DNA of 64,000 nt from an uncultured Polynucleobacter sp. (GCA_964402975.1 CAYOEM010000001.1:365899-429898); one strand, 5' to 3'. Positions 41,387 through 59,174 are shown, counted from the first letter of the stretch. Notes: generated by a model not told the origin, from the letters alone. Made by a program: numbers and translations.

Positions 41387-42811
41387 ATGAAGAACAAAGC
41401 GAGATCCCCGCGTGCGCCAATTCAACCCAAAACACCCTCGGGTAAACGAGGTCCTGTATTCAATCCAAATTCTAAAGAATCACCACTTGGGCCAAAGGGC
41501 GTAAAAACCCGCCAGGGCTCAGCCAGCACTAAAATCATGCGCAAAGCGGGCTTTAGCGGCAAGCTTCATCGCGGCCATGTCGTGGATGGAGCCACTGATT
41601 TTGCAACGAGCTGCTCCATAAAGGCCGAATGTGGCGCTTGTAAATACGTAAATACCAACTACGGCGAGTCACTTCGCAGCAAGTTTGAAGCGGGAGTGAA
41701 AACGCTGCAAGAGGCAGGCGTCATCAAAAACGCACAAATTCTTGATCCCATGCCAAGTCCGACACCGCTCGGTTATAGATCCTACTTCAAGCTTGCCATC
41801 AGACCGGCCTCGGCAGGCCAAGTGGCTGCTGCCTTAAGAGAGGGGAAAACAAGACGCTTTGCCATCGGACTGTTTGAGCCAGGTACTCATAAAGTCAGCG
41901 TTGATATGACCAACTGCCCCGTGCACACCAAACCACTCGCAAGCCTACTGGCAGATTTACAAACAGAAATTGAGGCTTCAGTACTTACGCCATTCGATGA
42001 GACGTCAAAATCTGGTGACCTTCGCTATGTGGCTGCTCGCTCTGCTCACCTGACCGGAGAGATCATGCTGACGTTTATCGTCACAAACCCGCAGAAGTTT
42101 GAATTAATTCGACTGGTCAATCGACTGCGTCGCCTCGGTCACAAGATCAATAGCGCTCATATGAATATCAATAACTCCTCAGGCAATGCCATTTTCGGCG
42201 ACGAAACCGTGTTACTTGCTGGCACTCCAGGACTTCGCGAAAGGGTCTGTGATCTTGACATCGAAATTAGCCCTTTAGCGTTCTTTCAGGTGAACCCGTG
42301 GCAGGCGAACAATCTTTATCGCCGAGTTGAAATTCACGCAGGACGCGCGCGGCCCAATGAAACAGCATGGGACCTCTATACGGGCACCGGTCAAATTGCC
42401 CTGCTTCTTGCTCGATCTGGATTTAAAACCTTGGGCATTGAAGAAATCGATGCTGCAGCCTCAGATGCTGCCTTGAATGCACAAAGAAATAAACTATCTG
42501 ACAAAGCACAGTTTCTCGCATCCCGAGTCGAAGATAGTGAGTCACGCTTGCCAGATTGGGCCAAGAACCCCAAAGTTATCGTCGTTAATCCCTCGAGACG
42601 AGGGCTTCACGAAACCGCACGAGCCCACATTACTCACATTCTACGAAGTAACCCTTCCGCAAAACTTATCTATGTGTCGTGCGAGGTTCAAACGCTGGCC
42701 AGAGATCTCAAAGCCCTCGCTGCCGCTGGCCATACGGTCCGTCAAATAGAGGCCTTCGACATGTTTGCCCAGACCGACAAACTAGAGTGGCTCGCCGTTT
42801 TAACAGCCTAA
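41387..42811 (+). CDS. 23S rRNA (uracil-5)-methyltransferase, RumA/RumB (RlmD/RlmC) family
   Basis: Fe-S Cys cluster CSIKAECGACKY plus CPVH. FFQVN motif, SAM site DLYTGTGQIAL, and NPSRRGL and YVSCE (catalytic Cys). Basic ~65-aa N-terminal extension in place of a TRAM domain. Confidence 0.85.
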   Translation: MKNKARSPRAPIQPKTPSGKRGPVFNPNSKESPLGPKGVKTRQGSASTKIMRKAGFSGKLHRGHVVDGATDFATSCSIKAECGACKYVNTNYGESLRSKFEAGVKTLQEAGVIKNAQILDPMPSPTPLGYRSYFKLAIRPASAGQVAAALREGKTRRFAIGLFEPGTHKVSVDMTNCPVHTKPLASLLADLQTEIEASVLTPFDETSKSGDLRYVAARSAHLTGEIMLTFIVTNPQKFELIRLVNRLRRLGHKINSAHMNINNSSGNAIFGDETVLLAGTPGLRERVCDLDIEISPLAFFQVNPWQANNLYRRVEIHAGRARPNETAWDLYTGTGQIALLLARSGFKTLGIEEIDAAASDAALNAQRNKLSDKAQFLASRVEDSESRLPDWAKNPKVIVVNPSRRGLHETARAHITHILRSNPSAKLIYVSCEVQTLARDLKALAAAGHTVRQIEAFDMFAQTDKLEWLAVLTA

Positions 42812-42921
42812 AAAAACACGCCGAATGACCTTAAAATGGGATCTACCCCACGCCCATAAAAGGTGCTATGCTCGGGACCTTTGTGAGTTACGGCCGGCAA
42901 AACTTATGGGGTGATCACAAG

Positions 42922-43788
42922 ATGAGCAGTAATTTTGAAGAAGGAATAATTGCGCCCGAGGGCTCAATGGTCACCTATTCGTCTTATTTAAAAATTACCG
43001 AACTACTCTCCCTTCAACAACCTCTATCCACCCCAAAAGAGCATGACGAAATGCTCTTCATCATTATTCATCAAACCTACGAGCTTTGGTTCAAGCAAAT
43101 TCTCCACGAACTCGATCTCGCCGAGAGGGATTTGGATGCCGATAATCCGCTGGGATCTCTAAAGACCTTAAAGCGCATTTCGACAGTCATGGGTGTTTTG
43201 ACACAGCAGGTCAGCATTCTAGAAACGATGACGCCAAATGACTTCAACCTCTTTCGCTCCAAGCTCAACCCAGCTTCAGGATTTCAAAGCCACCAGTTCA
43301 GAGTTCTTGAGTTTCGTATGGGGCTCAAAGATCAGGCGTTTCTAAAATTTTTTAAAACCAGCTCGACGTCCCTCGCCGCCATGGAACAGGCATTAAAAAA
43401 GCCGGCCTTTCAAGATCATCTCATCGGTTTTCTGGCAAGGCGTGGTTACAAGATCCCTGGAGCCCTTCTGGCTCGCGACGTCTCGAGCCCATGGACTCCG
43501 TCCAAAGAACTCGAGGATATCCTGACTGACATTTACGAAAACCATGCTAAGCATTACGAGGCTTATACACTTTTGGAGTCTCTTTGTGATTTAGATCAGC
43601 AATTCACACTTTGGCGCTACCGCCATGTGGCCATGGTGGAACGCATGATCGGCTCTCGAATTGGCACGGGTGGATCAAGCGGCGTAAAGTACCTGTCTTC
43701 GACGTTATCGAAGAGATTTTTTCCAGAGATCTGGAGCCTTCGAAGCCGACTTGGGTCAGGACTTAATTATGGGCAACCTCAACGCTAG
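42922..43788 (+). CDS. kynA: Tryptophan 2,3-dioxygenase
   Basis: YSSYLKITELLSLQQP ... HDEMLFIIIHQTYELWFKQ ... WRYRHVAMVERMIG ... GTGGSSG are typical TDO motifs. ATG at 42922. Confidence 0.85.
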   Translation: MSSNFEEGIIAPEGSMVTYSSYLKITELLSLQQPLSTPKEHDEMLFIIIHQTYELWFKQILHELDLAERDLDADNPLGSLKTLKRISTVMGVLTQQVSILETMTPNDFNLFRSKLNPASGFQSHQFRVLEFRMGLKDQAFLKFFKTSSTSLAAMEQALKKPAFQDHLIGFLARRGYKIPGALLARDVSSPWTPSKELEDILTDIYENHAKHYEAYTLLESLCDLDQQFTLWRYRHVAMVERMIGSRIGTGGSSGVKYLSSTLSKRFFPEIWSLRSRLGSGLNYGQPQR

Positions 43789-43823
43789 TTGCCCGGTAGC
43801 AATCGGGAAGGGAGTAAAAGCTT

Positions 43824-45026
43824 ATGGAATTAGTGAATAACGTCACCGCAAACATGAGACCCTACCCGATGGAGGAGCTGGCAAAGATTCGCTCCAATCT
43901 GGTTAAAGCGGGAAAGCCCGTTTTTGACTTCGGCACAGGGGACCCAAAGATTCCAACTTGGGAGCCGATACGTAGCGCCATCGTGAATGCTATCCCCACA
44001 ATCAGTCAATATCCAAGCGTCAAAGGCAGCGACACACTGCGCACCTCTCAATTGGGTTACCTCAGCCGCCGCTTTGGAATCATGCCATCACCTGACCTTG
44101 CGGTGATACCGGCTCAAGGAACCAAAGAGGCTATTTTTAATATCGGCCTCTGTTTGATCGGTCGCGAAGGCAAAAAACACCTCATTTACCCGGATCCTGG
44201 CTACCCAGTTTACCGAGCTTCGGCATTATACGCCGGTGGAATTCCCTACCCTGTCCGTGTCACGGCTGAGTCAAACTTTAAACTAGAACCCTGGAAGCTG
44301 CCTCAAGACGTCCAGCAATCGGCCGCCGCCATCTGGATTAATCACCCGCACAACCCAACCGGTGCAAGTGCGACTTATGAGTACTGGCAGGAAATAATCG
44401 CTTGGTGTCACAAGACCAACACCATCCTACTTTCTGACGATTGCTACGTAGACATCTATGACAGCAAGCTAGATCGCGGAATCGATGCAAATCCAAGGCA
44501 AGACAAAAGGCCTCTGACGCCACTACAGTTTAGCTGCGACAGGGTTCTAACTTTCATGAGCCTGTCGAAGCGCTCAGGTTTGACGGGCTACCGAAGCGGT
44601 ATGATCGCAGGCGACGCACGCATCGTAAATTCGCTACTTCAAGCACGCGCAAATTTTGGCGTCGGATCACCTGACTTCATTCAGGCGGGGGCCGCCGTCG
44701 CATGGAATGACGACTCACACGTTGCTGAACGCCGCAAAATCTTCACGGAACGACTCAATGTAGCCGCCCCTTACTTAATGAAGCTTGGACTTTTAGACGC
44801 GATGCCTGACGCTACATTTTATCTGTGGTGTAAAGTGCCAAAATCATACGACGGAGACGACAAGAGGTTCATCCTCGACCTTGCAGAGCAAGGTATTATC
44901 ACAAGCCCAAGTTCATGGCTCAGTGAAGGTCTGACTGGATATTTCAGATTAGCCATGGTTCCAGACACCAAAGATACGGTGCAGGCTATGGAAATACTAT
45001 CTCGTTTCGTCACCAAAACGAGCTAA
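43824..45026 (+). CDS. dapC: Class I/II aminotransferase, probable N-succinyldiaminopimelate aminotransferase
   Basis: PLP-Lys context SLSKRSGLTGYRSG and the NNPxNPTG-like motif NHPHNPTG. Immediately upstream of dapD; the functional assignment rests on this context. Confidence 0.8.
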   Translation: MELVNNVTANMRPYPMEELAKIRSNLVKAGKPVFDFGTGDPKIPTWEPIRSAIVNAIPTISQYPSVKGSDTLRTSQLGYLSRRFGIMPSPDLAVIPAQGTKEAIFNIGLCLIGREGKKHLIYPDPGYPVYRASALYAGGIPYPVRVTAESNFKLEPWKLPQDVQQSAAAIWINHPHNPTGASATYEYWQEIIAWCHKTNTILLSDDCYVDIYDSKLDRGIDANPRQDKRPLTPLQFSCDRVLTFMSLSKRSGLTGYRSGMIAGDARIVNSLLQARANFGVGSPDFIQAGAAVAWNDDSHVAERRKIFTERLNVAAPYLMKLGLLDAMPDATFYLWCKVPKSYDGDDKRFILDLAEQGIITSPSSWLSEGLTGYFRLAMVPDTKDTVQAMEILSRFVTKTS

Positions 45027-45044
45027 CTGTTGGGAGATCAAATC

Positions 45045-45884
45045 ATGTCAGAGACGACTCAGATGAAAAGCCAGATTGAATCCATTCAAGAAAAACTCTC
45101 AAGTGGTGATGACGCCGCTCTTCGCGACGGCCGGCAATGGGTTGAAAAAGTTATGGATAGTCTTGATCGCGGTCTAATCCGAGTGGCTGAAAACATCTCT
45201 GGGGAATGGGCCACTCACGCGTGGGTCAAACAAGCGATCATGATGTATTTTCGAATCATGGAGATGCGCGAGATGGAGGTAGGCCCTTTTATTTTCAGGG
45301 ATAAAATCCCTCTCAAGCGTAACTTTAAAGAATTAAATGTCCGAGTTGTGCCCCCGGCAGTTGCCCGATACGGAAGCTTCCTAGGTTCTGGCGTGGTTTT
45401 AATGCCTTCCTACGTGAATATCGGAGCCTACGTTGGAAGCGGCACCATGGTAGACACCTGGGCCACCGTTGGAAGCTGTGCCCAGATCGGTGCCGGCGTT
45501 CACCTTTCTGGCGGCGTTGGAATCGGCGGTGTTTTAGAGCCGGCGCAAGCCTCGCCCGTCATCGTCGAAGATGGCGCGTTTATTGGCTCAAGAGCTATTA
45601 TTGTTGAAGGCGTAAGAATTTGTAGCCAAGCCGTGGTGGGAGCAAACGTAACATTGACGGCTTCAACACCAATCGTCGACTTACGAACCAGCAGCAAGAC
45701 CATCACAAAAGGCGTTGTGCCAGAACGCTGCGTCGTAGTCCCCGGCACACTCGAAAAAGACGCGCCTCACGGCGGCGGCAAGATTCACACGCAATGCGCC
45801 TATATTCTTGGTGAGAGAAAAGCGTCCACAGATCTCAAAACATCCCTCAATTCCGCACTGCGGGATTTCTCGGTGTCGGTCTGA
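45045..45884 (+). CDS. dapD: 2,3,4,5-tetrahydropyridine-2,6-dicarboxylate N-succinyltransferase
   Basis: Hexapeptide-repeat region (NIGAYVGSGTMVDTWATVGSCAQIGAGVHLSGGVGIGG) with a DapD-type N-terminal domain. ATG at 45045 with a GGGAGA RBS. Confidence 0.9.
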   Translation: MSETTQMKSQIESIQEKLSSGDDAALRDGRQWVEKVMDSLDRGLIRVAENISGEWATHAWVKQAIMMYFRIMEMREMEVGPFIFRDKIPLKRNFKELNVRVVPPAVARYGSFLGSGVVLMPSYVNIGAYVGSGTMVDTWATVGSCAQIGAGVHLSGGVGIGGVLEPAQASPVIVEDGAFIGSRAIIVEGVRICSQAVVGANVTLTASTPIVDLRTSSKTITKGVVPERCVVVPGTLEKDAPHGGGKIHTQCAYILGERKASTDLKTSLNSALRDFSVSV

Positions 45885-46222
45885 TGGCAAAGCTAACCTT
45901 TCTACCATCCAATAAAACGGTGGAAACAACCCCCGACCAAAAGGTTCTGATCGCGGCTCGAAAAAATCAGATCCCCTTGCGATTTGGCTGCGCCTCATGC
46001 CGCTGCGGCACATGTGGTGTCAAGGTCGCGCCGACTGATGCCTTCCATCCAATGTCGCCTGATGAAGCAGCACTGCTTAAAAGAATGCGGTTACCACTAA
46101 CGGGAGAGGTCCGCCTGGCTTGCCAAGCTAAGCAAACGGGCGCGCTGGATGCGCAGGTCGATCTTGCATTTCAGGACACATACTCCCCGGATGATGGGGA
46201 TGGGGACGGCTCGCTGGCCTGA
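45884..46222 (+). CDS. [2Fe-2S] ferredoxin (plant-type fold)
   Basis: Cys pattern C-x4-C-x2-C in CASCRCGTC plus a distal LACQ. The start overlaps the dapD stop (ATGA-type). Confidence 0.8.
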   Translation: MAKLTFLPSNKTVETTPDQKVLIAARKNQIPLRFGCASCRCGTCGVKVAPTDAFHPMSPDEAALLKRMRLPLTGEVRLACQAKQTGALDAQVDLAFQDTYSPDDGDGDGSLA

Positions 46223-46324: not shown

Positions 46325-47305
46325 ATGTCCGCAGAGCTTCCCAAAAAACAGTCATTTCATCCAAGCGCGGAATTCTCGCTTTGCCGCTTTCCTGTCGACA
46401 GCATACTCGATAATTCGGTGACCGATTTTGATTTGTTCGCCGAGGTTAATTCGCATGTGGTTTTGTACAGCCAAAGCGGCTATCGGTGGGCCCGAGACGA
46501 ACTATCGGGACTGATCGGCAACGGCCATACTCATCTATGGATCAGACCAGAGGACCGCCCCAAAGCGGCTGTTTATGAAAAAATGGCCGCACTTCCAAAA
46601 ATTTCGGCAACCCTGAGCCCTGAAGAACGCCTCGGCAGAGTCCAAGACGTTGGTCTCGTATTCACTAAATATCTTTTCGAGGGTGACATCACAGAGTCGG
46701 CTGTCGGAAAAGCCCGGGAACTATCGGCTCACATCGTTTCATGCGTCCAAGAAGATCCCGGCTGCGTACGCGCTCTCACCGGATTAGCCGATCATGATCT
46801 CTACACCTACCTGCACAGCGTAAGGGTCGCCGCCTACGCGACAGCGATCGCTCAGGAAATGGGTCTAAAAGACGCGGAAATCCTGAAGCTTATTGCCCTA
46901 GGCGGCGTGTTCCATGATGTCGGCAAGTCAAATGTGGATATGGACATTATTAACAAACGCGGACCTCTGCTTGACCATGAGTGGAAGGCCATGCGCTCCC
47001 ATCCAACAGAAGGTCTTAAAAAGTTGGAGCACACCAACCTAAGTCACGTGAGCAAGGAGATCGTCGTCCATCACCATGAACGCCTGAATGGGAGTGGTTA
47101 CCCACATGGCATTAATAAAGACTCACTGATGGTTGAAGTTCAGATTGCAACGCTTGCTGACATATTTGACGCTCTCACATCATCTAGGAGCTACCAAAAT
47201 AAGCGGTCTCGATACGAGGCCTTGGATTTTATAAAACACCGACTCGTGGGTTCAGAAGTTTCCAGCGAGGCCTTTCAGGCCTTGGTTAGGTGCCTCGTAA
47301 AATAA
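46325..47305 (+). CDS. HD-GYP domain c-di-GMP phosphodiesterase
   Basis: HDVGK and HHERLNGSGYP motifs. N-terminal ~140-aa uncharacterised sensor region. Confidence 0.9.
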   Translation: MSAELPKKQSFHPSAEFSLCRFPVDSILDNSVTDFDLFAEVNSHVVLYSQSGYRWARDELSGLIGNGHTHLWIRPEDRPKAAVYEKMAALPKISATLSPEERLGRVQDVGLVFTKYLFEGDITESAVGKARELSAHIVSCVQEDPGCVRALTGLADHDLYTYLHSVRVAAYATAIAQEMGLKDAEILKLIALGGVFHDVGKSNVDMDIINKRGPLLDHEWKAMRSHPTEGLKKLEHTNLSHVSKEIVVHHHERLNGSGYPHGINKDSLMVEVQIATLADIFDALTSSRSYQNKRSRYEALDFIKHRLVGSEVSSEAFQALVRCLVK

Positions 47306-47372
47306 GCCCTGACGACCCAAAGCAACTTTGATAAAATCGCTCATCGAAAATCCTTAACGGTGAGCTCCAAAC

Positions 47373-48380
47373 GTGACCCATCTACCTCGCGTTATAATTC
47401 TGCTTGGAATGCTTGGCTTAAATAGCCCCGTCATGGGTGATGATGCTCTTTTAACTGGCCAGTGTGCGCTGAAGAGCGACCCAGAGCAAACAACGCCGGG
47501 ATTTTTGAATATCTGCCTCAATGCGTCTGCAGGCTCGTGGATCATTCAACAGTCAAAAGTGAATGATTCAAAGCAGCCGCCTATTATGCATCGAGCGGAT
47601 GGCAGGCTATCCATTCTTCTGTCCCCCTGGATAAGTATTCACACCAAAGGACACTCAAGCGTATTCGTTGATAGACAGACGCAAAGGACTATCAACAAGG
47701 AGAATCAGGGAGATCTGTCGAACTTACAGATCGGAAATAGCGCCCTGAGTCGCCATCGGCTTAGCGCTGGTCTCGGCCGTGTTCCCTACCGTCTAGACCA
47801 CAATCAGCGTCCTGGGTTGGAGTATGCTTGGAGTATCGACCGATTCCTTGCGCCCAAGTCTAGGTTTGCAACCTACACGTATGACAACCAGCTGGATTGG
47901 ACCTTGCAGGCCACCTATGGACAGCTAACTGATGAATCCTTGCGGCCGGATCAAAAAATGTTTGTTGGCGGTCGCGCCATGCACGACATCGCCGCCCTTG
48001 AGGGAACAAGAATAAGCCTTGGTGGCTACAACGACGGACTGGTGCGCCGAGCTGTGGCTCTCGGCATTCTTAACGTCAACGGTAAGGGTGATGAGACCTC
48101 TTTGGAATTCACCCGGACGTTTTCTTTCAATCCATATAAACCATCTGAATTCAATCAACTCATAAGGCTTGGCTACATCAGCCATCTACAGGAAAAATTT
48201 AGATATAAATTTCAGTATGACGATATTTTCAGTCAAGTACGCATCGGTGGAATGGCGGCATTATACACCCCCTACAAATACACCCACCTTGAGTTCATGC
48301 TGGGCTACGCGAAGCGAGAGGATAATAAAAAATTGAGCCATTGGTTCGCTGCACTAAACGCGGGAGCGCATCTCGAGTGA
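47373..48380 (+). CDS. Secreted beta-rich protein, possible outer-membrane beta-barrel, unknown function
   Basis: GTG start and signal peptide (VIILLGMLGLNSPVMG). The C-terminal two thirds show alternating-hydrophobicity strands (LEFTRTFSFNPY, FRYKFQYDDIF, HLEFMLGYAK). No terminal aromatic residue. Confidence 0.55.
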   Translation: MTHLPRVIILLGMLGLNSPVMGDDALLTGQCALKSDPEQTTPGFLNICLNASAGSWIIQQSKVNDSKQPPIMHRADGRLSILLSPWISIHTKGHSSVFVDRQTQRTINKENQGDLSNLQIGNSALSRHRLSAGLGRVPYRLDHNQRPGLEYAWSIDRFLAPKSRFATYTYDNQLDWTLQATYGQLTDESLRPDQKMFVGGRAMHDIAALEGTRISLGGYNDGLVRRAVALGILNVNGKGDETSLEFTRTFSFNPYKPSEFNQLIRLGYISHLQEKFRYKFQYDDIFSQVRIGGMAALYTPYKYTHLEFMLGYAKREDNKKLSHWFAALNAGAHLE

Positions 48381-51181
48381 AATCCCACAGACAAAAAACA
48401 CACTTAAGCCTGGTAATAGCATTTTTATCATGCATGCTTTCGATAGAAGCTGTGGCGGCACCAAAAAAACCAAAGCGCTCAAAAGGCAAGACATCACAAA
48501 CATCGCCACAGGCGCACCCACAGTCTGACAAAAGCAAACCAGCACGTGCCGAACAAACAAGCACCGTGATTGAGGTCAGCGACACGACTTCTGACGAGGT
48601 GGAACAAGTATCCAATCGCCCCATCGACCGTCTTTTTAGAAATCCAGTTCTTGCCGCTGGTTTAATAAGCGGCGCAGACGCCATCAACAAAGAGCTGGAT
48701 AACCTTATGGAGTCACTGTTCTATAGCTTACTAGACAACCGTCTTAAATGGCCATTAGCCGGGCCAACATCGACAAACTTAGCCTTGACGAGAGACCTCT
48801 ACAACGCACGAGATGGGGCCTACGTCGTTATCGATCGATTTGGAATCGGACCTGATTATAATCGCGAGCTTTACCGCTATAACGGCATCCCGGTTAATCT
48901 CGGCGCCAGTCAATCAAGCGACGTCTACGATATTTATCTACGCACAGATCCGATGCGTGTGACCGAGAACAAAAGCCTACCGTTTTGGAGAGTGGCTCTA
49001 AATAACTGGCTCGGCGCCCTACCCTTACTCGAAGCCATTTTGCCGCCGTCGTTTAACCCCAATGAAATGTACGACCCCATCAACCTCATTGAGACGCCCT
49101 TTACATTCCCCTTGTCGGTAGATTCCGCCAAAGCGATGGATATCGGTAGTATCAAAAGCTACTCCATTAACGGCGGCATAAATCTCGGAGTCGAAGCCGC
49201 CCAAGGAATACATGGGTTTAAAGATCAGGTCATGACTGGAGCCACTGCACTACAGATAAAACTGCCTTACACTGTTTTTAGAACGGGAGAATACCGCATC
49301 AATGTACTCAAAAAAGACACCAACACCGTATTAGTCGGCGTCATGGACTCAAACAGGCTGGGGCACCGCGTGGAAACGAAGCTAGGTAAAACCTACTTTC
49401 TACTCGCAAAAACCATTCCTCTCTGGCGCGGAATGCCTGCGCCTATATTCCCGATTGATTTTGCAATTGAGGAAACGATCGGAAATATCTTTGGCCGTGT
49501 TTACTCGTTCGACCTACGAAATGAGGAGGCCAAGACGGCATTTGTGGAGGCTGTCCATGGAAATTTTGCCGCAGCACAAATCTCATGGCTACGTTCAAAG
49601 GAAGACAGGCACGACACTGGCGTCACGTTTTTTTATACAAAAAAGGAGCAGCGCTTTGAAACGTCTGTCGCCACAGGTCACAACATTTATCTTACAAGCC
49701 GGAGAACAAACCGCAGTCACTCAGATGCCGAAATTGAAATTAATGATGCATCGGGTAATTACTACATTCTCGAAGCGAAAGAGGACGCCGATCAGCGACG
49801 ATGGGACATGCTAACTGGCCGCGCCGAAACAAACATCACACTTCAGGCGGACCTTATGGTTCGCAAGGTCGTTGAAAAAGAACTCGGGCAAGACACGATA
49901 AAATCTCGATATGAATTTATTGCCGAGGGAAATCCCGTCGAATTAACCTTCAGTCTTTCTCTAAATGATAAATTCGTCGAGACAGAGGATCTTGCCGCAT
50001 ATTTAAAAACTCTATCTAAGTTTACTCAGCTAGAGATGAATGGGCTGCCTGAATTCACAACGCGAGAAGAGGAGCAACTATCCAGAAGACGCCGCGAAAT
50101 ATATTTTAATAATGACTCTGATGATAATCATCGCTTGCATGTAACCCCGACTCACCTTGGACAGTTTGAAGGGTACGCAAGTATCCGAATGACAAACGAT
50201 CAATTACTTTCGGTGGCCAACTTGCCACGGACCGAACTGTGGAAGATGTTTTGTAAATCTTTTTCAATCAATGACGAAGAACTATGCCTCACATGGGAAA
50301 GATCTCTACTTTGGCGAAATCTCTACAGATTGAACGGCTTGCTAACACGACCGCTTCGTCTAATAGACTACAGAATCCGATTTGCAGATGCCGCCGATGA
50401 GATCGAGAACGCTGTTGCGGCGCTGCGTGAGTTCGCAGCAACCCAAACTCCGACGGAAAAACAGGCTGCATTGCGTCGTCTATTTTCAACCGAATACCCG
50501 CTCGAGATTGTAGAAGCATTACTGCTGCTTTCAGAACTCCGGGATATCCCTCGGTCCTGTGAAATTCAAACCAAACCAAAAGGAAACGCCTCAAGAGAGG
50601 TGAAAGACAGGTTCAAGTTGATGGATGGGCATCGTTTTACAAGCGAACGTGCATTTCCACCTCCAGCTCGCTATGACTCCACAAAGGAAACGGAAAGAAA
50701 ATTTGACCCTGCAAACCTGGCATTTACGGGCACGAAGCCACGGGTCAAGAAAATTACGTTATTTAAAGAACAAGGGGCCAGTGTGCCTGGTGACGTCACC
50801 CCCAAAAAGTCACCCGCCGCTGCTCCAATGCTTTCAACTAAAATATCGGTCTCTAAAATCAGCGGAAAGAGCCATTTGTCTGTCTATGTAAAGTTAGAGC
50901 AAGCCGGTCGCTTACAACTAGCTAAATTAAAATTAATCGAAGACGTCATCGACGTGCCAGTAGCTGCCGAAAGCTCCTCCGCTGCGGCATTGGACCGGGC
51001 TAACTTTGTTATTAAGCTATCTGGGCCAGGCAGCCTCCTAGCCAACGTGATGTCAGAAGAGTCACTTACTAGCGGCGGTGAGTTTCGACTAACTCTAGCC
51101 ATTTCAGCCAACGGCCTCATCTGGAGTGACGAAAAAAGCTTGGAATTTCGGATAGAAGGCGGTGAGTTGAAAGCGCGCTAA
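48377..51181 (+). CDS. Large (934 aa) secreted orphan protein
   Basis: The GTG at 48377 overlaps the upstream stop (GTGA). Signal peptide LSLVIAFLSCMLSIEAVAA, then a K/P/S/Q-rich disordered stretch. No HExxH, GxSxG, Cys-protease or nucleotide-binding motif found by eye. Confidence 0.65.
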   Translation: MKSHRQKTHLSLVIAFLSCMLSIEAVAAPKKPKRSKGKTSQTSPQAHPQSDKSKPARAEQTSTVIEVSDTTSDEVEQVSNRPIDRLFRNPVLAAGLISGADAINKELDNLMESLFYSLLDNRLKWPLAGPTSTNLALTRDLYNARDGAYVVIDRFGIGPDYNRELYRYNGIPVNLGASQSSDVYDIYLRTDPMRVTENKSLPFWRVALNNWLGALPLLEAILPPSFNPNEMYDPINLIETPFTFPLSVDSAKAMDIGSIKSYSINGGINLGVEAAQGIHGFKDQVMTGATALQIKLPYTVFRTGEYRINVLKKDTNTVLVGVMDSNRLGHRVETKLGKTYFLLAKTIPLWRGMPAPIFPIDFAIEETIGNIFGRVYSFDLRNEEAKTAFVEAVHGNFAAAQISWLRSKEDRHDTGVTFFYTKKEQRFETSVATGHNIYLTSRRTNRSHSDAEIEINDASGNYYILEAKEDADQRRWDMLTGRAETNITLQADLMVRKVVEKELGQDTIKSRYEFIAEGNPVELTFSLSLNDKFVETEDLAAYLKTLSKFTQLEMNGLPEFTTREEEQLSRRRREIYFNNDSDDNHRLHVTPTHLGQFEGYASIRMTNDQLLSVANLPRTELWKMFCKSFSINDEELCLTWERSLLWRNLYRLNGLLTRPLRLIDYRIRFADAADEIENAVAALREFAATQTPTEKQAALRRLFSTEYPLEIVEALLLLSELRDIPRSCEIQTKPKGNASREVKDRFKLMDGHRFTSERAFPPPARYDSTKETERKFDPANLAFTGTKPRVKKITLFKEQGASVPGDVTPKKSPAAAPMLSTKISVSKISGKSHLSVYVKLEQAGRLQLAKLKLIEDVIDVPVAAESSSAAALDRANFVIKLSGPGSLLANVMSEESLTSGGEFRLTLAISANGLIWSDEKSLEFRIEGGELKAR

Positions 51182-51265: not shown

Positions 51266-51342
51266 GGTGGCTGTGGCGAAGTGGTTAACGCAGCGGATTG
51301 TGATTCCGCCATCCGTGGGTTCAAGTCCCATCAGCCACCCCA
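51266..51342 (+). tRNA. tRNA-His (anticodon GTG)
   Basis: GGTGGCTGTGGCGAAGTGGTTAACGCAGCGGATTGTGATTCCGCCATCCGTGGGTTCAAGTCCCATCAGCCACCCCA. It has the extra G(-1) paired with C73 that is characteristic of tRNA-His, the anticodon loop TTGTGAT, and an encoded CCA. Confidence 0.9.
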
Positions 51343-51400: not shown

Positions 51401-53596
51401 TTAATGGGCCAATGTATCGTGAGCTTGATACACCACATGGCGCCCATCTTTTCGGACAGTAATCTGCTTGTCGTCGGCCATACGTTTCAGCAGACGCTTC
51501 ACTGTGGCAAGGGATACACTTGTTTTCTCTGCTAGTTGCTGACTCGATAGGGGACTTCGCGAGAGCAGATGCTGTATGCGTCGATCAACCGAGGGATCAT
51601 CGGACACATCTTTGATAACCGTGATGGCTTCGCCGAAAAAGCGCAGCCTCTCGTTATGGATCACGATCGGCGCGATCGTGTAGGGACACAGGTCCCTAAC
51701 CCTCATCACGGCATTCCGAATTTTCTGCTGCCAGCCCTGAGCATTCACGCTTTCCTTCCATACATTTGCCTGGATCTCTGCCAAGGAAACGCCGCCAGCA
51801 GGTGCAGCTACCAAGTATTGAATCAGGTCAGCCATCGCAGGGTGCTTTTCCAGATTGACGATGTAATGCTCAGAAACGACCAAACACTTACCGCCTGAAA
51901 ACTTCAATGTCGGAGCAAAATAACTCCTAACGAACCTGGCAACCAACTTCTGTTGCCAATCATACTGAAAACGAGGGCTCTCGCCGCGGAGAGTGGCTAA
52001 GCAAGCATGGGCAGCGAATCGATCAGGCCAACTTACCGCGGCCATCTTTTCAGTCGCATGCAGCAGCTTAAATGCTCTGTCAAAATCACCCCTTTGGTAA
52101 GCGATGCCCGCGTAGATGAATTGCAACTTGGCGCCGATAGGCGTGTCGCCTAGGCGAGACACAGCAATTTCTAGCGACGAAAGACGCTGCTGAACTTTAT
52201 CTAAGTCATGCCTTTGAAGGTGTTGTGAGATTATCGCCAACAAAATGTAGGCCTGATGATTAAGGGCGTCTAAACTGCGAGCCATTTTAAGACAATCTTC
52301 AAGCTCCGATAGCACATCATCAGATGTCTCATGAGAACTCGATAGTAGTACTCGAGAGTATTTATACTCCAGCCACTGCGTCTGATTTTTCTGAAGTGAT
52401 TCATCAACCTTGAATCGCTCCAATAAGACCTCACCCATCGCTGCTAACTGAATTTGATACCGGCTTAATGTTGAAAGCTCCTCGAGATTGCGGACACCAT
52501 GAAGTGCAAGCTGATGAGCTGCAGATTGAAGCACCTGCATACTTTCGGGTATTTTGCCCTCTTCCCAGAGGATCTCAGCTTCCAGGGCTTGATACCTGGT
52601 CTTAAACCTTTCGCTAGCGTCAAGAGCTGCTAATTCAATCGTTTGTCTGCCAAATTTAATACCAAGAGCGTACTTACCCATGGCGAAATAAGTAAAACTA
52701 AGAAACGACATAATGTGAAGCCTTCGAAACGACTTATCGCTGGCTGGCAATACCGTCATGGCCCGCCGGAAGTGCTCGCGCGCCCCAATAAAGTTACCTT
52801 TGCTAAATGCCTCAACGCCGTAGAAGGCCTCACAGTGTGAGCGTGGTCCCGGCAAGTTATGCTCCACACTAAGTTTGCGCGCTCGCTCGACAAGCGCCGT
52901 GGCATCCTCTGTCTTCTCGGCGCCGCTGTTTTGAATACAGGCGCCCGCGTTGAAAAGTGCCCTCGCCGCACCCTCCCAATCTTGCAACTCAAGCAAAATC
53001 GGAGCTGCCTCCTCGAACGCTGCTGCCGCCTCTGGATAACGACCCATAAAATATTGTAACCGGCCCATACGCATCACAAAATCTGCTCTCTCCCGATGCG
53101 ACATTTGAGCAGAGCGAACAAGAATCACCACTTTTGAGAGAACACGAACGGCATGTTCGGTTTTACCTTCTTCTGCAAAACTAGAGGCCACCAAGAGCTC
53201 AAGGTTGATTCGATCAAGATCACTGATCGAGGAAAGACGGAGAGATCGCTGCGCATAATCGCGACTAATCCCAGGCTTTCCAGCTTCAAGGAAAATCTGA
53301 GCGGCCGGAATGCTGACTACAGGGACTGTCAATTTTTTAGAAAATTCGGCTATGCTCACACCTGCTTCGATGTTCCAGCACGACGTGGCGCCAACCAACA
53401 AAGCACCCCACAGCCTAGGGTCATAATTTAATGACTGCGGATCACTCTCAAGTTTACGAAAAATGTCTCCAATCAGCTTTGGGCTGGCGTGAGACGAGAG
53501 CACGTCAAAATATTTGGCAAAATAATCATCCCAATGCCTTTTCGTATGGCAGTCTTTGAGAGACTTTAATGCTTGGTCCAAACGTTCTGACATCAT
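51401..53596 (-). CDS. TPR-rich putative transcriptional regulator with two C-terminal winged-helix DNA-binding modules
   Basis: About 550 aa of helical TPR-like repeats (for example YFMGRYPEAAAAFEEA and YQRGDFDRAFKLL). These are followed by an OmpR/BTAD-like segment (VSLAEIQANVWKES...IRNAVMRVRDL) and a terminal HTH (LSSQQLAEKTSVSLATVKRLLKRM). Confidence 0.7.
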   Translation of the reverse strand: MMSERLDQALKSLKDCHTKRHWDDYFAKYFDVLSSHASPKLIGDIFRKLESDPQSLNYDPRLWGALLVGATSCWNIEAGVSIAEFSKKLTVPVVSIPAAQIFLEAGKPGISRDYAQRSLRLSSISDLDRINLELLVASSFAEEGKTEHAVRVLSKVVILVRSAQMSHRERADFVMRMGRLQYFMGRYPEAAAAFEEAAPILLELQDWEGAARALFNAGACIQNSGAEKTEDATALVERARKLSVEHNLPGPRSHCEAFYGVEAFSKGNFIGAREHFRRAMTVLPASDKSFRRLHIMSFLSFTYFAMGKYALGIKFGRQTIELAALDASERFKTRYQALEAEILWEEGKIPESMQVLQSAAHQLALHGVRNLEELSTLSRYQIQLAAMGEVLLERFKVDESLQKNQTQWLEYKYSRVLLSSSHETSDDVLSELEDCLKMARSLDALNHQAYILLAIISQHLQRHDLDKVQQRLSSLEIAVSRLGDTPIGAKLQFIYAGIAYQRGDFDRAFKLLHATEKMAAVSWPDRFAAHACLATLRGESPRFQYDWQQKLVARFVRSYFAPTLKFSGGKCLVVSEHYIVNLEKHPAMADLIQYLVAAPAGGVSLAEIQANVWKESVNAQGWQQKIRNAVMRVRDLCPYTIAPIVIHNERLRFFGEAITVIKDVSDDPSVDRRIQHLLSRSPLSSQQLAEKTSVSLATVKRLLKRMADDKQITVRKDGRHVVYQAHDTLAH

Positions 53597-53816: not shown

Positions 53817-55832
53817 ATGATGAGCGTCGTTCGTTCTCTACTCAACCTCGTTGAACGCCCGCGCCGCGGCACACTGAAGGCCATTGGCGTCTGTATAATT
53901 TCGGCTGGTATTTACACAACGGCAGTGCAGGCTTTTGATGGACCACAGCGCCTGACAAGCTCCGTTATGTGGCAAACAAGTGAAAAGCCGGATGAGCGGT
54001 TTGTCTATCCTCCCGGAGTGCCCGCCGTTCTTCGTCCATCAACAAAAGAGCGAACATTGCGGGTCGAACAGTACTTTTCGCACCCCATCTCAGCCACAAG
54101 TATCGCAGTAGACCTTCACGGCACTTGGCCGGAAATACCCGAAAATGCCCTGACAGCGGAAGCCCATGGCGGCTGGAGTGGTCGCTTTGTTCGCATCTCG
54201 GCGCCGGCGTGTGATGAAACCAAAACTCTTGGTGGATTTCGATGTTTCATGGACGTCAAGATATCTCCGTCGACTCCGTCTGGCACAATCGGTCTTAGTA
54301 CTCGGCTGAACATTTTCGGACGAAACTACGGTCATCAAAATGGCGTGTTCTGGATCATCCTGCCAGAGATGTCCGCACCTCATTTCGAGAGACCATTCGC
54401 AAAGAATACGGTACCAGCATCTGTCAAAACATCTGTGAACCTCACCGAAGATTCACCCTACCCGGCCCTCTCTGTTTTCAATCGTGAGAGAGCCAAGCGA
54501 GCCACTGTGCAGATAACGCTCGAGGGGAACTTTTCTCTTGGGTCAGGTTTCCTTGTTTCTAATGCCGAGACGATTTTTCCGGTTTTTGGATCTGAGATGT
54601 CCGAAAAACTCCGCGCGCTACCCACGAACACACGTTTTGTAGTGACGGCAGCCCATCTCTTTCCGCTCGGCTACGGTTTTGCTCCTCGAGGTCAAATTCA
54701 AAACATATTGGACAACGCCGAAAGCTTATTCGACGACGGAGAGACCTATGATCTTCTGATCTCCGGTAAGCTCTATGAACGTGCAGGTCGACTTCTCGTG
54801 ACGAACATGGAAAGTGATATCGCGCTCCTGGCATTATCACCTGAGGCTGAGGCGCAAGTGCTAGCTAGCGGCACCATGTCAGAAGTTGATTTGCTGGGAT
54901 TAAATATCGCCAGGAATATGAACAATAACGTGGCTCTTGATGTATTTGGCTACCCCGTTTCAGGAAAAGGCCTCATCACGCATCGTCGCGGCTATCTAGC
55001 GCCAAACGCCTGGCCGACAGACGACACGTCTAACTTCGGACCACTGATCAAATTCAAGCTCCAAGCTATCGATACCGCTGTTAACCTGGCTGAGGCAGGC
55101 CTGTCTGGCGGTCCGATCATTAACCTCAACGGTGAAGTCGTTGGACTTTCCATGGAGCGCCCAAATGATACGAACTCTCTCGTCGCCGTCGACCTAACGA
55201 GTTTGGCCAACCTGCCTACAGACTGGCAGGGCGACGACTCTGAGTGCAAGGTTGTGTTTAACCCGTTTGACCGCGTCTTACGCATATTTAAAAACGGTGA
55301 CTCTTGTTCCTACGGGCGCTTTGGTAGTCCACAACGATTTGCATCTCTGTCGGGCGAATGGTCGTTTCAAGAAGTGTTCGGGTTTGCAGACGAAAATGGC
55401 GATATAACTCCTGACGTGGCGAACGCCTACTGGCTGATGAATGGTCATGCCATCATCAATGGCCATGCCATTATTAATGGGCATGCGATCATCAATGGTC
55501 ACGCCATTATTCGGGGAACTAAGCTCGTAGTTGATCGAAATAATATCGATCTCATCAACAACTCAGAGATGATCGGTGGCTTTAAACTCAACCCTGATAG
55601 CTTTAGACCCATGGTGAGCAAGGGAGTCCGCATCTTGAAGGCTGGATCGAACTTCGTTCAAACGGAAGACTTTCTAGGAAAACTCATTCTCGGAACAAGA
55701 CCTAATTCCGATAAAGCACACTATCAGCCCGTATACTCGATCAGAGACTTTGTAATCTGGTGGCACAAGGTTGCCGACAGCGCCGATGCTTCGAAGCTAC
55801 TCTGCTACAGCGGCGAAAACTGCGGCAAGTGA
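53817..55832 (+). CDS. Secreted trypsin-fold (S1 family) serine protease with large N- and C-terminal extensions
   Basis: Signal peptide. Catalytic-triad contexts are VVTAAHLF (His), ESDIALLAL (Asp) and AGLSGGPIIN (Ser). The C-terminal region contains (NGHAII)x4. Confidence 0.75.
   Translation: MMSVVRSLLNLVERPRRGTLKAIGVCIISAGIYTTAVQAFDGPQRLTSSVMWQTSEKPDERFVYPPGVPAVLRPSTKERTLRVEQYFSHPISATSIAVDLHGTWPEIPENALTAEAHGGWSGRFVRISAPACDETKTLGGFRCFMDVKISPSTPSGTIGLSTRLNIFGRNYGHQNGVFWIILPEMSAPHFERPFAKNTVPASVKTSVNLTEDSPYPALSVFNRERAKRATVQITLEGNFSLGSGFLVSNAETIFPVFGSEMSEKLRALPTNTRFVVTAAHLFPLGYGFAPRGQIQNILDNAESLFDDGETYDLLISGKLYERAGRLLVTNMESDIALLALSPEAEAQVLASGTMSEVDLLGLNIARNMNNNVALDVFGYPVSGKGLITHRRGYLAPNAWPTDDTSNFGPLIKFKLQAIDTAVNLAEAGLSGGPIINLNGEVVGLSMERPNDTNSLVAVDLTSLANLPTDWQGDDSECKVVFNPFDRVLRIFKNGDSCSYGRFGSPQRFASLSGEWSFQEVFGFADENGDITPDVANAYWLMNGHAIINGHAIINGHAIINGHAIIRGTKLVVDRNNIDLINNSEMIGGFKLNPDSFRPMVSKGVRILKAGSNFVQTEDFLGKLILGTRPNSDKAHYQPVYSIRDFVIWWHKVADSADASKLLCYSGENCGK
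55440..55511 (+). repeat. In-frame tandem repeat, 18 bp x 4, encoding (NGHAII)4
   Basis: The four copies are aatggtcatgccatcatc / aatggccatgccattatt / aatgggcatgcgatcatc / aatggtcacgccattatt. All differences between copies are synonymous third-position changes. Confidence 0.9.
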
Positions 55833-55850: not shown

Positions 55851-56582
55851 CTATTTAAGATGCTCGAAGATCGCGCTTGCGCATTCTCGGCCGAATGATT
55901 GCGGCATGCCAAGCAAAGCGATTACTCCCATCCTTACCAAGCCTTCATCAATCTTTGTGGTGGCTTCCATCCGAGCGCCAACTCCGACTTGATCTATAGC
56001 CCAGCTGGTGACCAGTTCAGCCCTGTCAAATGACACACTGGCGTACACCCCTCCCGGAGTCAAAAAAGTCAGAATTAAATTTTTGAGTGCACCTGAGGCG
56101 TCCCTATCTAGAACAAGATCGAAGGGGCCCTCACCTCGAAACTTCAAGCGTACGTCACCATTGGCCAGTACCTCCTCGCCAATGGCTACCGACGTATGAC
56201 CCCAATGAATAGGAGCCATTAAATCTCGCATTGCATGAAAATCTTCTATGGACGCATGTCGGAAAGCCATCCCGAAGCCGCGAGGTCTCGCCAGAATCTT
56301 CACGATTTCGACTGGTTTACAGAATCCAGCCACCCTGAGATTTGCCATGACTGGCAGGCTCACAGATGCCAATAAGGCCTCCGGATTTTCCACCAAGGCA
56401 AAACATCCAAAATGCGAGATGTTGGATACGGAAAGCGTTCCGAAAATGTCGCTCTCGCAGACGAATAGACTCGAAACATTCAGCGGATAGCGCTGATGGA
56501 GTCGGCGCTGGGCCTGCTCCGCGGGGTCTTTTGGAGGGGAGGCTGAGGACTCTGCCTTGAATAGTTTTTTGAAAAAACTCAT
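55851..56582 (-). CDS. PilZ-domain protein with an uncharacterised C-terminal domain
   Basis: RRLHQRYPL (RxxxR-like) and NISHFGCF ([DN]xSxxG) near the N-terminus. About 130 additional C-terminal residues. Confidence 0.65.
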   Translation of the reverse strand: MSFFKKLFKAESSASPPKDPAEQAQRRLHQRYPLNVSSLFVCESDIFGTLSVSNISHFGCFALVENPEALLASVSLPVMANLRVAGFCKPVEIVKILARPRGFGMAFRHASIEDFHAMRDLMAPIHWGHTSVAIGEEVLANGDVRLKFRGEGPFDLVLDRDASGALKNLILTFLTPGGVYASVSFDRAELVTSWAIDQVGVGARMEATTKIDEGLVRMGVIALLGMPQSFGRECASAIFEHLK

Positions 56583-56907
56583 AAAAATCAGCTCACTTTA
56601 ACCCATCAAGTGCATGACGTCGCTGCGGTCGAGTGCCCTCACCCGTAACGTCTAACATACTATCAAAACGGGTAAAATTGGTCACCTCCAGATAATAACG
56701 ACACCTTTGGAAAGCAAACTATTGCCATCAGTACCGCCCCCGTGCTACAAGGACGCCACTCGATTTAGTATTCGAGACCGGCGGAGCTGCCTTGAAAGTG
56801 TAACGATTAAGACCCCTTGGGTCGCAAAAGGCAGCTTCTGAACCGTCTGGCTAACTAAGCTAGCAACTTTCTAGCGTCATAAAAACCGCACAAATTTGCT
56901 GCACCAG

Positions 56908-56978
56908 ACACTTCCACCGGACTTTTCCTAATTTTTTGGAGAAGTCATCGACGGCCGGATGTGGAAGGTGTTTTTTTA
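56908..56978 (+). terminator. Terminator-like or attenuator hairpin in the rimP-nusA leader
   Basis: Outer stem CACTTCCACCGG / CCGG-AT-GTGGAAG-G-TG encloses an inner hairpin ACTTTTCC / GGAGAAGT. It is followed by TTTTTTT and lies about 30 nt upstream of the rimP start. Confidence 0.45.
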
Positions 56979-57007
56979 ATTCGGTTGAGACGTGAGAGGT
57001 AAAAACT

Positions 57008-57487
57008 TTGAAATTGCCACGAGACAAGCTTCATCAAATCGCGGACATGGTTACAGCCATGCTGCAAGGCGAGGGTTTTGTTTGTCTAGATGCTGAATTC
57101 GAAGCCCACACCAGAACCCTGAGACTCTATGTCGATCATAAAGACGGAGTTGACATTGACGCTTGCACGCGAGTTTCCAATACGCTCGTAGAAAGCCCTG
57201 AACTCGACGAAGTGATCCCCGTTGAATTCAACCTTGAGATTAGCTCTCCGGGCGTTGAGCGCCCTGTGCGAACGTTGTCTGACTTCGTCGCAGCTAAGAA
57301 TGAAGGTTGCCAGATCAATGTTGGTTTAACAGAGAAATACATGAATCGCCGCAAAGGCAAAGGGCGTGTCACGGCGATTGATGACAAGGATATGATCTCA
57401 ATGTCCACAACCGAGGGAGCCTGGAGCTTCCCTTGGCATATGGTTTTAAAGGCAAATAGGGTCGTTGATTGGACGGCAGTTCGATAA
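57008..57487 (+). CDS. rimP: Ribosome maturation factor RimP
   Basis: TTG start with a GAGAGG RBS. Alignable by eye to E. coli RimP (LRLYVDHKDGVDIDACTRVS ... LEISSPGVERP). Located upstream of nusA. Confidence 0.85.
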   Translation: MKLPRDKLHQIADMVTAMLQGEGFVCLDAEFEAHTRTLRLYVDHKDGVDIDACTRVSNTLVESPELDEVIPVEFNLEISSPGVERPVRTLSDFVAAKNEGCQINVGLTEKYMNRRKGKGRVTAIDDKDMISMSTTEGAWSFPWHMVLKANRVVDWTAVR

Positions 57488-57539
57488 CGACAATGTTTAA
57501 CATTCACCTCCGGTGAGGATCTAACAAAAGGTTGGAACT

Positions 57540-59120: not shown

Positions 59121-59174
59121 GCTTGAGACGTATTGAACGTGAAAAGGGAATTTTTTTTAAAGGACGAATGACGC

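Follow-up and report, generated by a model that had tools for sequence, protein, structure and literature searches.

An overlapping gene pair conserved across Oligoflexales encodes a predicted porin-fold barrel and a large exported orphan protein: a possible outer-membrane complex

Most of what is known about the building and use of Gram-negative outer membranes comes from dedicated complexes between a β-barrel and a partner protein, namely LptDE, SusCD, RcsF-OMP (OMP, outer-membrane protein), TamAB and AlgKE. In the present work, two overlapping open reading frames (ORFs) were analyzed computationally in a stretch of 64,000 nucleotides from an uncultured Polynucleobacter sp. (GCA_964402975.1 CAYOEM010000001.1:365899-429898), the whole of which is referred to here as the window. 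ORF1 encodes a predicted outer-membrane barrel and ORF2 a large exported protein; a literature search on the ORF2 family found nothing. If the two proteins act together as proposed below, the pair would add to the known complexes an order-wide and apparently housekeeping one with components of another kind: a pared-down porin fold and a confidently modeled 100-kDa protein devoid of recognizable relatives in sequence or structure.

Two described cases are close to the arrangement proposed. RcsF is threaded through the lumens of OMPs, and the β-barrel assembly machinery (BAM) folds the barrel around its linker (PMC4942254). Likewise, a disordered segment of colicin threads through OmpF, and porin lumens accept disordered chains (PMC8561637). 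The pair resembles the RcsF-OmpA/C/F and colicin-OmpF complexes in that the partner carries a disordered segment long enough for a porin lumen (residues 66–82, with a low predicted local distance difference test score, pLDDT), and the RcsF complexes also in the proposed topology, N-out/C-in, and in the proposed co-assembly with the barrel (PMC4942254, PMC8561637). Furthermore, the acidic linker and the basic barrel of the pair are charge-complementary. In contrast to RcsF, ORF2 is not a lipoprotein and is approximately eight times larger, and its barrel is dedicated and co-encoded instead of being a housekeeping porin. Since ORF2 lacks a lipid anchor, the likeness is confined to the proposed topology.

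Conservation of the gene pair

The stop codon of ORF1 and the start codon of ORF2 overlap as GTGA, and the junction reads ...ctcgaGTGAaatccc (stretch shown: ctcgaGTGAaat). The frame of ORF2 is open from a TTG codon at 48341, which would give 946 amino acids (aa) if used. The GTG at 48377, from which the product has 934 aa, was favored as the start because the homologues match it in length and N-terminus. A Shine-Dalgarno-like motif precedes this GTG within the last codons of ORF1 (Table 1), and GGAG(G) occurs at the equivalent place in many other loci, as seen in their junction contexts.

The occurrence of the pair was analyzed in one genome per species, which gave 55 loci. Nearly all of their source labels are Oligoflexales, Oligoflexus or related Bdellovibrionota metagenome-assembled genomes (MAGs), or are generic or evidently mis-binned. 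With a two-iteration profile, 51 of these 55 loci were found to have the barrel gene directly upstream of the large gene and in the same orientation; three of the other four are cut by a contig end, and L049 truly lacks the barrel gene. Of 52 junctions, that of the window among them, about 42 show a four-nucleotide NTGA overlap and three more a one-nucleotide TGATG overlap, which makes about 45 of 52. The pair was also present, with an overlapping junction, in the cultured Oligoflexus tunisiensis Shr3 (L035 4964-8619). Beyond the closest relative, synonymous sites are saturated between lineages, and when the neighboring ORFs were clustered, the barrel and the large protein were the only universally common genes. 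Both are single-copy in the window and in each locus read, with no paralogue in the window. The pair is a core, vertically inherited module and not an accessory island. The stop/start overlap and the translational coupling put forward in a preliminary description of the window were thus confirmed in the sequence and found to be conserved across an order, and the pair cannot be dismissed for lack of co-conservation.

The locus L049 (3371-8466) contains the only full-length Oligoflexales-type member without an upstream barrel gene. The genes directly upstream of it, on the opposite strand, encode a multi-pass membrane protein of 189 aa and another protein of 352 aa. The N-terminus of the L049 member has a spacer and an IPQIENIF motif, with no obvious strand box (see below).

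Homologues were numerous. A word-indexed search returned 104 for ORF2 and 26 for ORF1, and an exhaustive profile search matched the ORF2 profile to 348 representatives. In the comparison with the nearest relative, the barrel had a ratio of nonsynonymous to synonymous substitution rates (dN/dS) of 0.09 and the large protein a ratio of 0.02, and dN was 0.108 for the barrel and 0.027 for the body of the large protein. On account of these many homologues and low ratios, ORF1 and ORF2 are not chance ORFs but genuine genes on which purifying selection acts strongly. A search for a homologue in a model organism, carried out with the profile of the distant homologues described below, returned only MAG proteins.

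In the closest relative, L005 (92% aa identity), an in-frame TAG at 5400-5402 replaces the codon of Glu273 (window ~49193-49195), so that this locus reads INLGV*TAQGIHGF where the large protein of the window has INLGVEAAQGIHGF. Either this TAG results from an error in sequencing or assembly, or it marks a strain-level pseudogene.

That two unrelated envelope proteins are co-transcribed by chance, with no functional link, is highly improbable. No function has been assigned to either protein, and synteny among relatives can persist by descent alone; against this, the adjacency and the overlap survive order-wide despite reshuffled neighbors and saturated synonymous sites, and the loss of the barrel coincides with that of the N-terminal module of its partner. 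With its core-genome setting, its single copy and a dN/dS of 0.02 for the large protein, the pair gives the appearance of belonging to the housekeeping part of the envelope and not of being an accessory weapon.

Predicted structures of the barrel and the large protein

ORF1 consists of a signal peptide of n/h/c layout (residues 1–22, MTHLPRVIILLGMLGLNSPVMG|DD), a cysteine-containing N-terminal extension (residues 23–45) and a 16-stranded porin-fold β-barrel (residues 46–334). The AlphaFold2 model, built on a 26-sequence alignment, places the 16 strands across residues 46–334 with a pLDDT of 85.2 and a predicted template modeling score (pTM) of 0.77. When this model was compared with the PDB by Foldseek, 207 matches were obtained at E ≤ 0.001, and the best 50 were all 16-stranded OmpF/OmpC-type porins (OmpF, OmpC, OmpU, OmpK36, Omp-Pst and engineered OmpF variants), with E-values of ~1e-10 and template modeling (TM) scores of ~0.6. 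The strands have alternating hydrophobic and polar faces in 66 family members. ORF1 therefore models confidently as an outer-membrane-type, 16-stranded antiparallel β-barrel with a porin fold, in agreement with its earlier description, on the grounds of its signal peptide and strand-like alternating hydrophobicity, as a candidate outer-membrane barrel.

The model resembles general porins (OmpF/OmpC/OmpU) in its 16 antiparallel strands, in the lone long loop between strands 5 and 6 and in the TM-score of ~0.6. It differs from them in having no sequence-family match, in its other, very short loops, in its conserved cysteine-containing N-terminal extension and in its obligate coupling to a partner gene. 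No match was found for ORF1 in Pfam or NCBIfam at E ≤ 1, no porin family (Porin_1, Porin_4 and similar) was recovered at E ≤ 0.1 when 26 barrel members were compared with Pfam and NCBIfam (the Pfam scans were empty), and the family profile matched no PDB sequence. According to the secondary structure of the model, the 25-residue loop occupies the position of porin loop L3 and may fold into the lumen as a constriction, and the remaining loops have 3–10 residues. The conservation hotspot of the family comprises this loop and the segment just before it, with residues Q119, G121, N122, R127, H128, R129, G133, G135, W153 and F158. Many of the invariant residues of the family are basic or otherwise polar; the basic ones include R127, H128, R129, R201, R213, R226, R248, R265, R290 and K314, and the median isoelectric point of the family is ~8.8.

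The N-terminal extension of the barrel contains two cysteines, of which one is almost invariant while most members also have the other. These cysteines suggest a disulfide-closed segment, either periplasmic or lumenal.

ORF2 also begins with a signal peptide of n/h/c layout (...LSLVIAFLSCMLSIEAVA|A), and a type I signal peptide is present in all members of the family. In the protein of the window alone, FLSC at residues 16–19 fits a lipobox; an assignment as lipoprotein was rejected because Cys19 is not conserved and the cleavage sites of the relatives are of the AxA type. The signal peptide is followed by a low-complexity spacer, whose length before the strand box varies from 0 to 53 aa across the family and whose net charge varies from -9 to +10. 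The strand box itself forms a strand at residues 65–68 in the model (as assigned by DSSP); its form differs in the Oligoflexus clade, and a few members lack it. Between the end of this box and the PI(D/E) motif (residues 66–82) there are 11–23 aa (median 17, in 82 members), a stretch that is net negative in 95% of the 82 members, with a median charge of -4.

The AlphaFold2 model of ORF2, built on an 82-sequence alignment, has a pLDDT of 85.8 and a pTM of 0.81. The pLDDT values fall below 50 at residues 23–61 and 74–102, before a conserved helix at residues 101–114, and the folded body comprises a β-rich core, a mainly helical region and a C-terminal all-β domain (Table 1). The invariant residues are concentrated in positions 115–359, above all in the helical insert 191–253 (LPPSFNPNELYDP...), which is the most conserved segment of the protein; no invariant His/Ser/Cys catalytic set was seen in the alignment. 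No match was found in Pfam or NCBIfam at E ≤ 1, the comparison of 43 diverse members with Pfam was empty, the family profiles matched no PDB sequence, and neither internal nor tandem repeats were found in the pair at the DNA or the protein level. ORF2 is, hence, confidently modeled yet has no recognizable relatives in sequence or, as far as the model goes, in structure. This bears out the preliminary description, in which it was presented as a secreted 934-aa protein with a disordered K/P/S/Q-rich tract and no recognizable domain.

The only Foldseek matches of ORF2 were outer-membrane barrels: borderline matches in the PDB to RagA/SusC, PiuD, FecA and EspP (E 3e-4 to 1e-2, probability up to 0.98) and, in BFVD, SusC and autotransporter entries that gave no assignment. 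Together with the alternating hydrophobicity of some strands and a strand box that loosely recalls a TonB box, these matches could be taken to mean that the large protein is itself a membrane-embedded β-barrel, similar to a divergent TonB-dependent transporter or an autotransporter, and that two barrels merely share an operon. This was considered very unlikely. The PDB matches have TM-scores of 0.12–0.24 and a root-mean-square deviation of ~20 Å, and they are therefore not real superpositions but generic β-meander. The strands, of 18–27 residues, are too long and mostly charged or polar, the model has a 110-residue all-helical region and a C-terminal β domain, no plug or TonB-dependent-receptor Pfam signal was detected in the 43 members, and the C-terminus (…GGELKAR) is not aromatic. 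SusCD/RagAB and the TonB-dependent transporters are like the pair in supplying the top Foldseek matches of ORF2 and in the order of barrel then partner, but the pair has no 22-strand barrel, Plug/TonB_dep_Rec domain or SusD-like fold. In view of the polar strands, the non-aromatic C-terminus and the long helical region, the modeled ORF2 was read as a soluble, Sec-exported protein and not as a membrane barrel.

Two additional analyses concerned the β-rich core. Homology between the barrel and this core was rejected (hhalign probability 0.7%), and a mean-field direct coupling analysis of 201 non-redundant sequences with a reduced alphabet, applied to the closure of the core, returned only artefacts of gaps and invariant columns.

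The barrel might also be a dedicated exporter that translocates or anchors the large protein as a surface adhesin, enzyme or toxin, with the strand box as the recognition signal. The coupled order of barrel then cargo would fit, as would a disordered N-terminal segment with a short conserved strand that could dock by β-augmentation, and 16-stranded barrels can pass unfolded chains (TpsB; colicin threading, PMC8561637). Two-partner secretion (TpsB/TpsA, FhaC/FHA) has, likewise, an operon of a 16-stranded barrel and a large Sec-dependent protein, and the Slam (type XI) systems a neighborhood of barrel and cargo genes. Nevertheless, the mature barrel has ~313 aa with a 23-residue extension and lacks any POTRA, ShlB, Omp85, DUF560 or autotransporter signature, its best fold matches being diffusion porins; it is not the 14-stranded DUF560 barrel of Slam, and there is no TPR (tetratricopeptide repeat) domain. 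For its part, ORF2 has no TPS domain, β-helix, repeats, toxin fold or conserved lipobox Cys. No MACPF, aerolysin/ETX-MTX2 or toxin fold was found for it among the 50 best Foldseek matches listed (PDB, BFVD) or in Pfam, and the pair has no fold match to autotransporters or pore-forming toxins. Furthermore, ORF2 belongs to the core genome and, with a dN/dS of 0.02, evolves slowly and is more conserved than the barrel, which is unusual for surface effectors, and solitary homologues without any barrel exist. An exporter with its cargo was thus regarded as unlikely, and neither the two-partner-secretion and Slam analogies drawn in the preliminary description nor its proposal of an effector or pore-forming toxin was supported; instead of an export, effector or pore-forming system, the evidence favors a housekeeping envelope complex.

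The N-terminal module and a possible barrel-partner complex

Beside the full-length Oligoflexales tier, a second tier of ORF2 homologues was detected at E 1e-48 to 1e-33. The few named sources are MAGs of “Bdellovibrio sp.,” “Bdellovibrionales” and “Bacteriovoracaceae,” and ten of these homologues showed no Pfam domain when scanned. They are homologous to residues 100–908 of ORF2 (hhalign probability 100) and lack residues 28–99, and with them an N-terminal module formed by the variable spacer, the strand box, the acidic stretch and the PI(D/E)xxFxNPxLxxGLxSG motif. A sub-profile of residues 58–99 matched all 82 barrel-linked members of the first tier and none of 29 from the second, and no upstream barrel gene was present in any of the six second-tier loci examined (L056-L060 and the P0261 place). 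A perfect correlation between the strand box and the barrel was rejected, given that the box is missing in L031 and L042 in spite of their barrel; for that reason the link is claimed only for the wider module of residues 58–99. The N-terminal module is tied to the presence of the barrel, in a strong but not perfect association. A natural comparison set is at hand, with barrel-linked forms that have the module and solitary forms that do not. The pair is also available in a cultured host, O. tunisiensis Shr3.

Two of the second-tier loci have a small GT2 glycosyltransferase gene just upstream on the same strand, and in one locus a second protein, of 882 aa and without Pfam match, follows.

The conserved overlapping frames, the exclusive co-conservation of both genes and the joint loss of barrel and module point to a complex formed through the N-terminal module. 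Whatever goes beyond the gene structure, coupling, folds, export signals and co-occurrence is inference, and this applies to the physical complex, the threading, the topology and the substrate. We propose, with a probability of about 0.3, that barrel and partner form a stoichiometric complex in the outer membrane, the partner being tethered to the basic barrel by its acidic N-terminal module. Both proteins would be subunits of a fixed, roughly equimolar complex and a core envelope component of Oligoflexales. The first subunit would be a compact 16-stranded porin-fold barrel with short external loops and one long loop at the L3 position; the second, a soluble, β-rich, Sec-exported protein of ~100 kDa whose N-terminal module keeps it at the barrel. 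The acidic linker, whose 11–23 residues would be enough to span the barrel, may lie in or along it, as is suggested by its length and by its acidity, the barrel being basic and having numerous invariant Arg residues. On the far side of the barrel there would be the strand box and the variable spacer, and on the periplasmic face the slowly evolving body, since a hypervariable spacer and a slow-evolving body suggest that the N-terminus is exposed and the body protected in the periplasm. The topology would be N-out/C-in, as in RcsF-OMP complexes, and assembly would take place while the barrel folds, which would explain the overlapping, coupled reading frames. In such a complex the barrel would serve as an anchor or gate rather than as a general diffusion pore, and the body as a periplasmic scaffold or an enzyme acting on an envelope polymer or lipid. 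If the linker does occupy the barrel, porin threading would serve the cells' own proteins beyond the enterobacterial RcsF. Somewhat more tentatively, the pair may represent an undescribed class of outer-membrane machine, in which a threaded acidic linker permanently interlocks a minimal porin-fold barrel and a large partner that is no lipoprotein and whose fold has no PDB match. Such a machine would serve either a new kind of anchoring or communication across the outer membrane or a POTRA-less export different from the type V and type XI systems.

Several points weigh against the tethered complex. Physical contact between barrel and partner is deduced indirectly, and the only arguments for the threading, the topology and the membrane face of the body are charge, length and rates of evolution. 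The monomer model shows the strand box paired in cis (DSSP strand 65–68, pLDDT ~67), and this box may thus be no more than an edge strand of the body. The L3-position loop may or may not fold into the lumen, which may be open or closed. Additionally, L049 is full-length yet has no barrel, and the strand box is missing in the barrel-linked members of L031 and L042. Finally, the link to a polymer or lipid is weak for the organism of the window because the sulfatase-family genes described next are absent from all 64 kb.

The main hint of a role in polymer or lipid metabolism comes from these genes, since the operon of one lineage in three also encodes two membrane-anchored enzymes of the alkaline-phosphatase superfamily. 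In 15 loci (Table 1), “Sulfatase”-family genes of this superfamily, one or two per locus and usually two, lie between an HD-GYP gene and the barrel gene, with adjacent or overlapping ends. The first enzyme (~690 aa) has five transmembrane helices, the sequence VDSLR...PRTFPS and a Thr-nucleophile-like site, without the C/SxPxR signature; the second (~790 aa) has one transmembrane helix. The membrane anchoring was checked in three loci (L013, L019 and L033). The HD-GYP gene is common to 22 loci, being directly upstream of the barrel in ~16 (18 if one split and one weak match are counted) and 2.5–4.6 kb upstream in six.

These neighbors would also fit a barrel through which nothing is threaded, acting as a substrate-specific conduit for the export of an exopolymer or glycolipid or for nutrient uptake, with the partner as a periplasmic scaffold, binding or processing subunit. 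An arrangement of this kind would resemble AlgK-AlgE, or BcsC and PgaA, in which TPR and barrel are fused. We considered it possible, but not probable. The 16-stranded barrel, its highly conserved L3-position loop and basic residues and the conserved coupling agree with it, as do the neighbors related to cyclic di-GMP (c-di-GMP), that is, HD-GYP in 22 loci and PilZ downstream in L026, and the two alkaline-phosphatase-superfamily enzymes in the operon of 15 loci, of which the one with five transmembrane helices and PRTFPS is like polymer or lipid phosphotransferases in architecture. Exopolysaccharide export (AlgK-AlgE, BcsC, PgaA, with BcsG-type enzymes) thus shares with the pair a 16–18-stranded barrel with a large periplasmic partner, the c-di-GMP-related neighbors and, in those 15 loci, membrane-anchored enzymes in the same operon. 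On the other hand, ORF2 has neither TPR nor any other known scaffold fold, the modifying enzymes are absent from the window, and no synthase gene was found among the window genes scanned (41387..46219, 55851..61973) or the conserved neighbors, nor is a glycosyltransferase found beside the pair in the window or as a conserved neighbor. It would also leave unexplained why the solitary homologues lose exactly the N-terminal module. Should the pair turn out to be an ordinary specific porin and a periplasmic enzyme, the gain would be that two families of conserved hypothetical proteins in Bdellovibrionota could be annotated.

Flanking genes and feature coordinates

The positions of the features in the window are collected in Table 1. 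The number of promoter-like sites in the region was not above the shuffled expectation, and the one upstream of the barrel gene is thus a candidate only. The only RNAs identified with Rfam were two tRNAs, with no riboswitch or other RNA upstream.

Table 1. Features of the gene pair and its surroundings (positions in the window unless a locus is named)
Feature	Position	Strand	Remarks
HD-GYP-type (HD_5/HDIG) phosphodiesterase-like gene	46325..47305	+	326 aa; Pfam HD_5 2e-22; NCBIfam HDIG, c-di-GMP phosphodiesterase family
Promoter-like site CTGACG-17-TAAAAT	47309..47337	+	candidate; TG before -10; 36 nucleotides before barrel start
ORF1, barrel gene	47373..48380	+	GTG start; 335 aa
Barrel N-terminal extension	47439..47507	+	residues 23-45; GxCxLKxDP…NxCxNAxAGSW; poorly modeled
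Sole long barrel loop	47781..47855	+	residues 137-161, between strands 5 and 6; short helix 149-153
Shine-Dalgarno-like motif for ORF2, GGGAG	48362..48366	+	within last ORF1 codons, 10 nucleotides before GTG
GTGA stop/start overlap, 4 nucleotides	48377..48380	+	ORF2 GTG 48377-48379 over ORF1 TGA 48378-48380
ORF2, large orphan protein gene	48377..51181	+	934 aa; mature form ~102 kDa
ORF2 signal peptide	48377..48457	+	residues 1-27; AVA|A; type I signal peptidase site
Variable low-complexity spacer	48458..48556	+	residues 28-60; K/P/S/Q-rich in the window; pLDDT <50
Short strand box TSTVIEVSD	48557..48583	+	family pattern [VTI]-x-[IV]-[ED]-[FYV]-[DE]-[DE], from column counts
Acidic linker	48584..48622	+	residues 70-82, between strand box and folded body; pLDDT <50
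PI(D/E)xxFxNPxLxxGLxSG motif and helix ADAINxSIxSLMESLFYSLLDN	48623..48736	+	strongly conserved
β-rich core	48737..50194	+	residues 121-606; ~15 antiparallel strands of ≤27 residues, helical inserts
Mainly helical region	50195..50716	+	residues 607-780; AlphaFold2 model
C-terminal all-β domain of short strands	50741..51175	+	residues 789-933; AlphaFold2 model
tRNA-His (GTG)	51267..51342	+	85 nucleotides after ORF2; neighbor, not part of the pair
TPR protein with C-terminal winged helix-turn-helix (HTH)	51401..53596	-	731 aa; after tRNA-His
Trypsin-like protein	53817..55832	+	671 aa; weak Trypsin_2 match; perfect four-fold tandem peptide NGHAII x4
“Sulfatase”-family genes of other loci	e.g. L019 277-4718		L012-L015, L019, L020, L022, L024, L031, L033, L040, L042, L050, L052, L054

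Upstream of the pair, the window contains the housekeeping genes for tryptophan dioxygenase, an aminotransferase, dapD and ferredoxin; downstream it contains the tRNA-His gene, the TPR-HTH regulator, the trypsin-like protein and rimP-nusA-infB. In the Oligoflexus-type loci, the pair adjoins the S10 ribosomal-protein operon. The location just upstream of tRNA-His and a regulator/protease module, pointed out in the preliminary description, holds for the window and is conserved only among close relatives, the TPR-HTH gene and the protease being found beside the pair in 5–6 loci. A conserved link to the downstream trypsin-like protease was rejected, since the protease beside the distant homologue in L059 is unrelated.

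A small protein of ~165–210 aa is encoded upstream of the module in L026 (4105-4605), L027 (4207-4698), L013 (680-1270), L014 (715-1347) and L031 (40-315), and a bacterial SH3_3 domain was confirmed in it in L013, L014 and L026. The PilZ-domain protein of L026 is encoded just downstream of the large gene, and the neighbor in L027 clusters with it.

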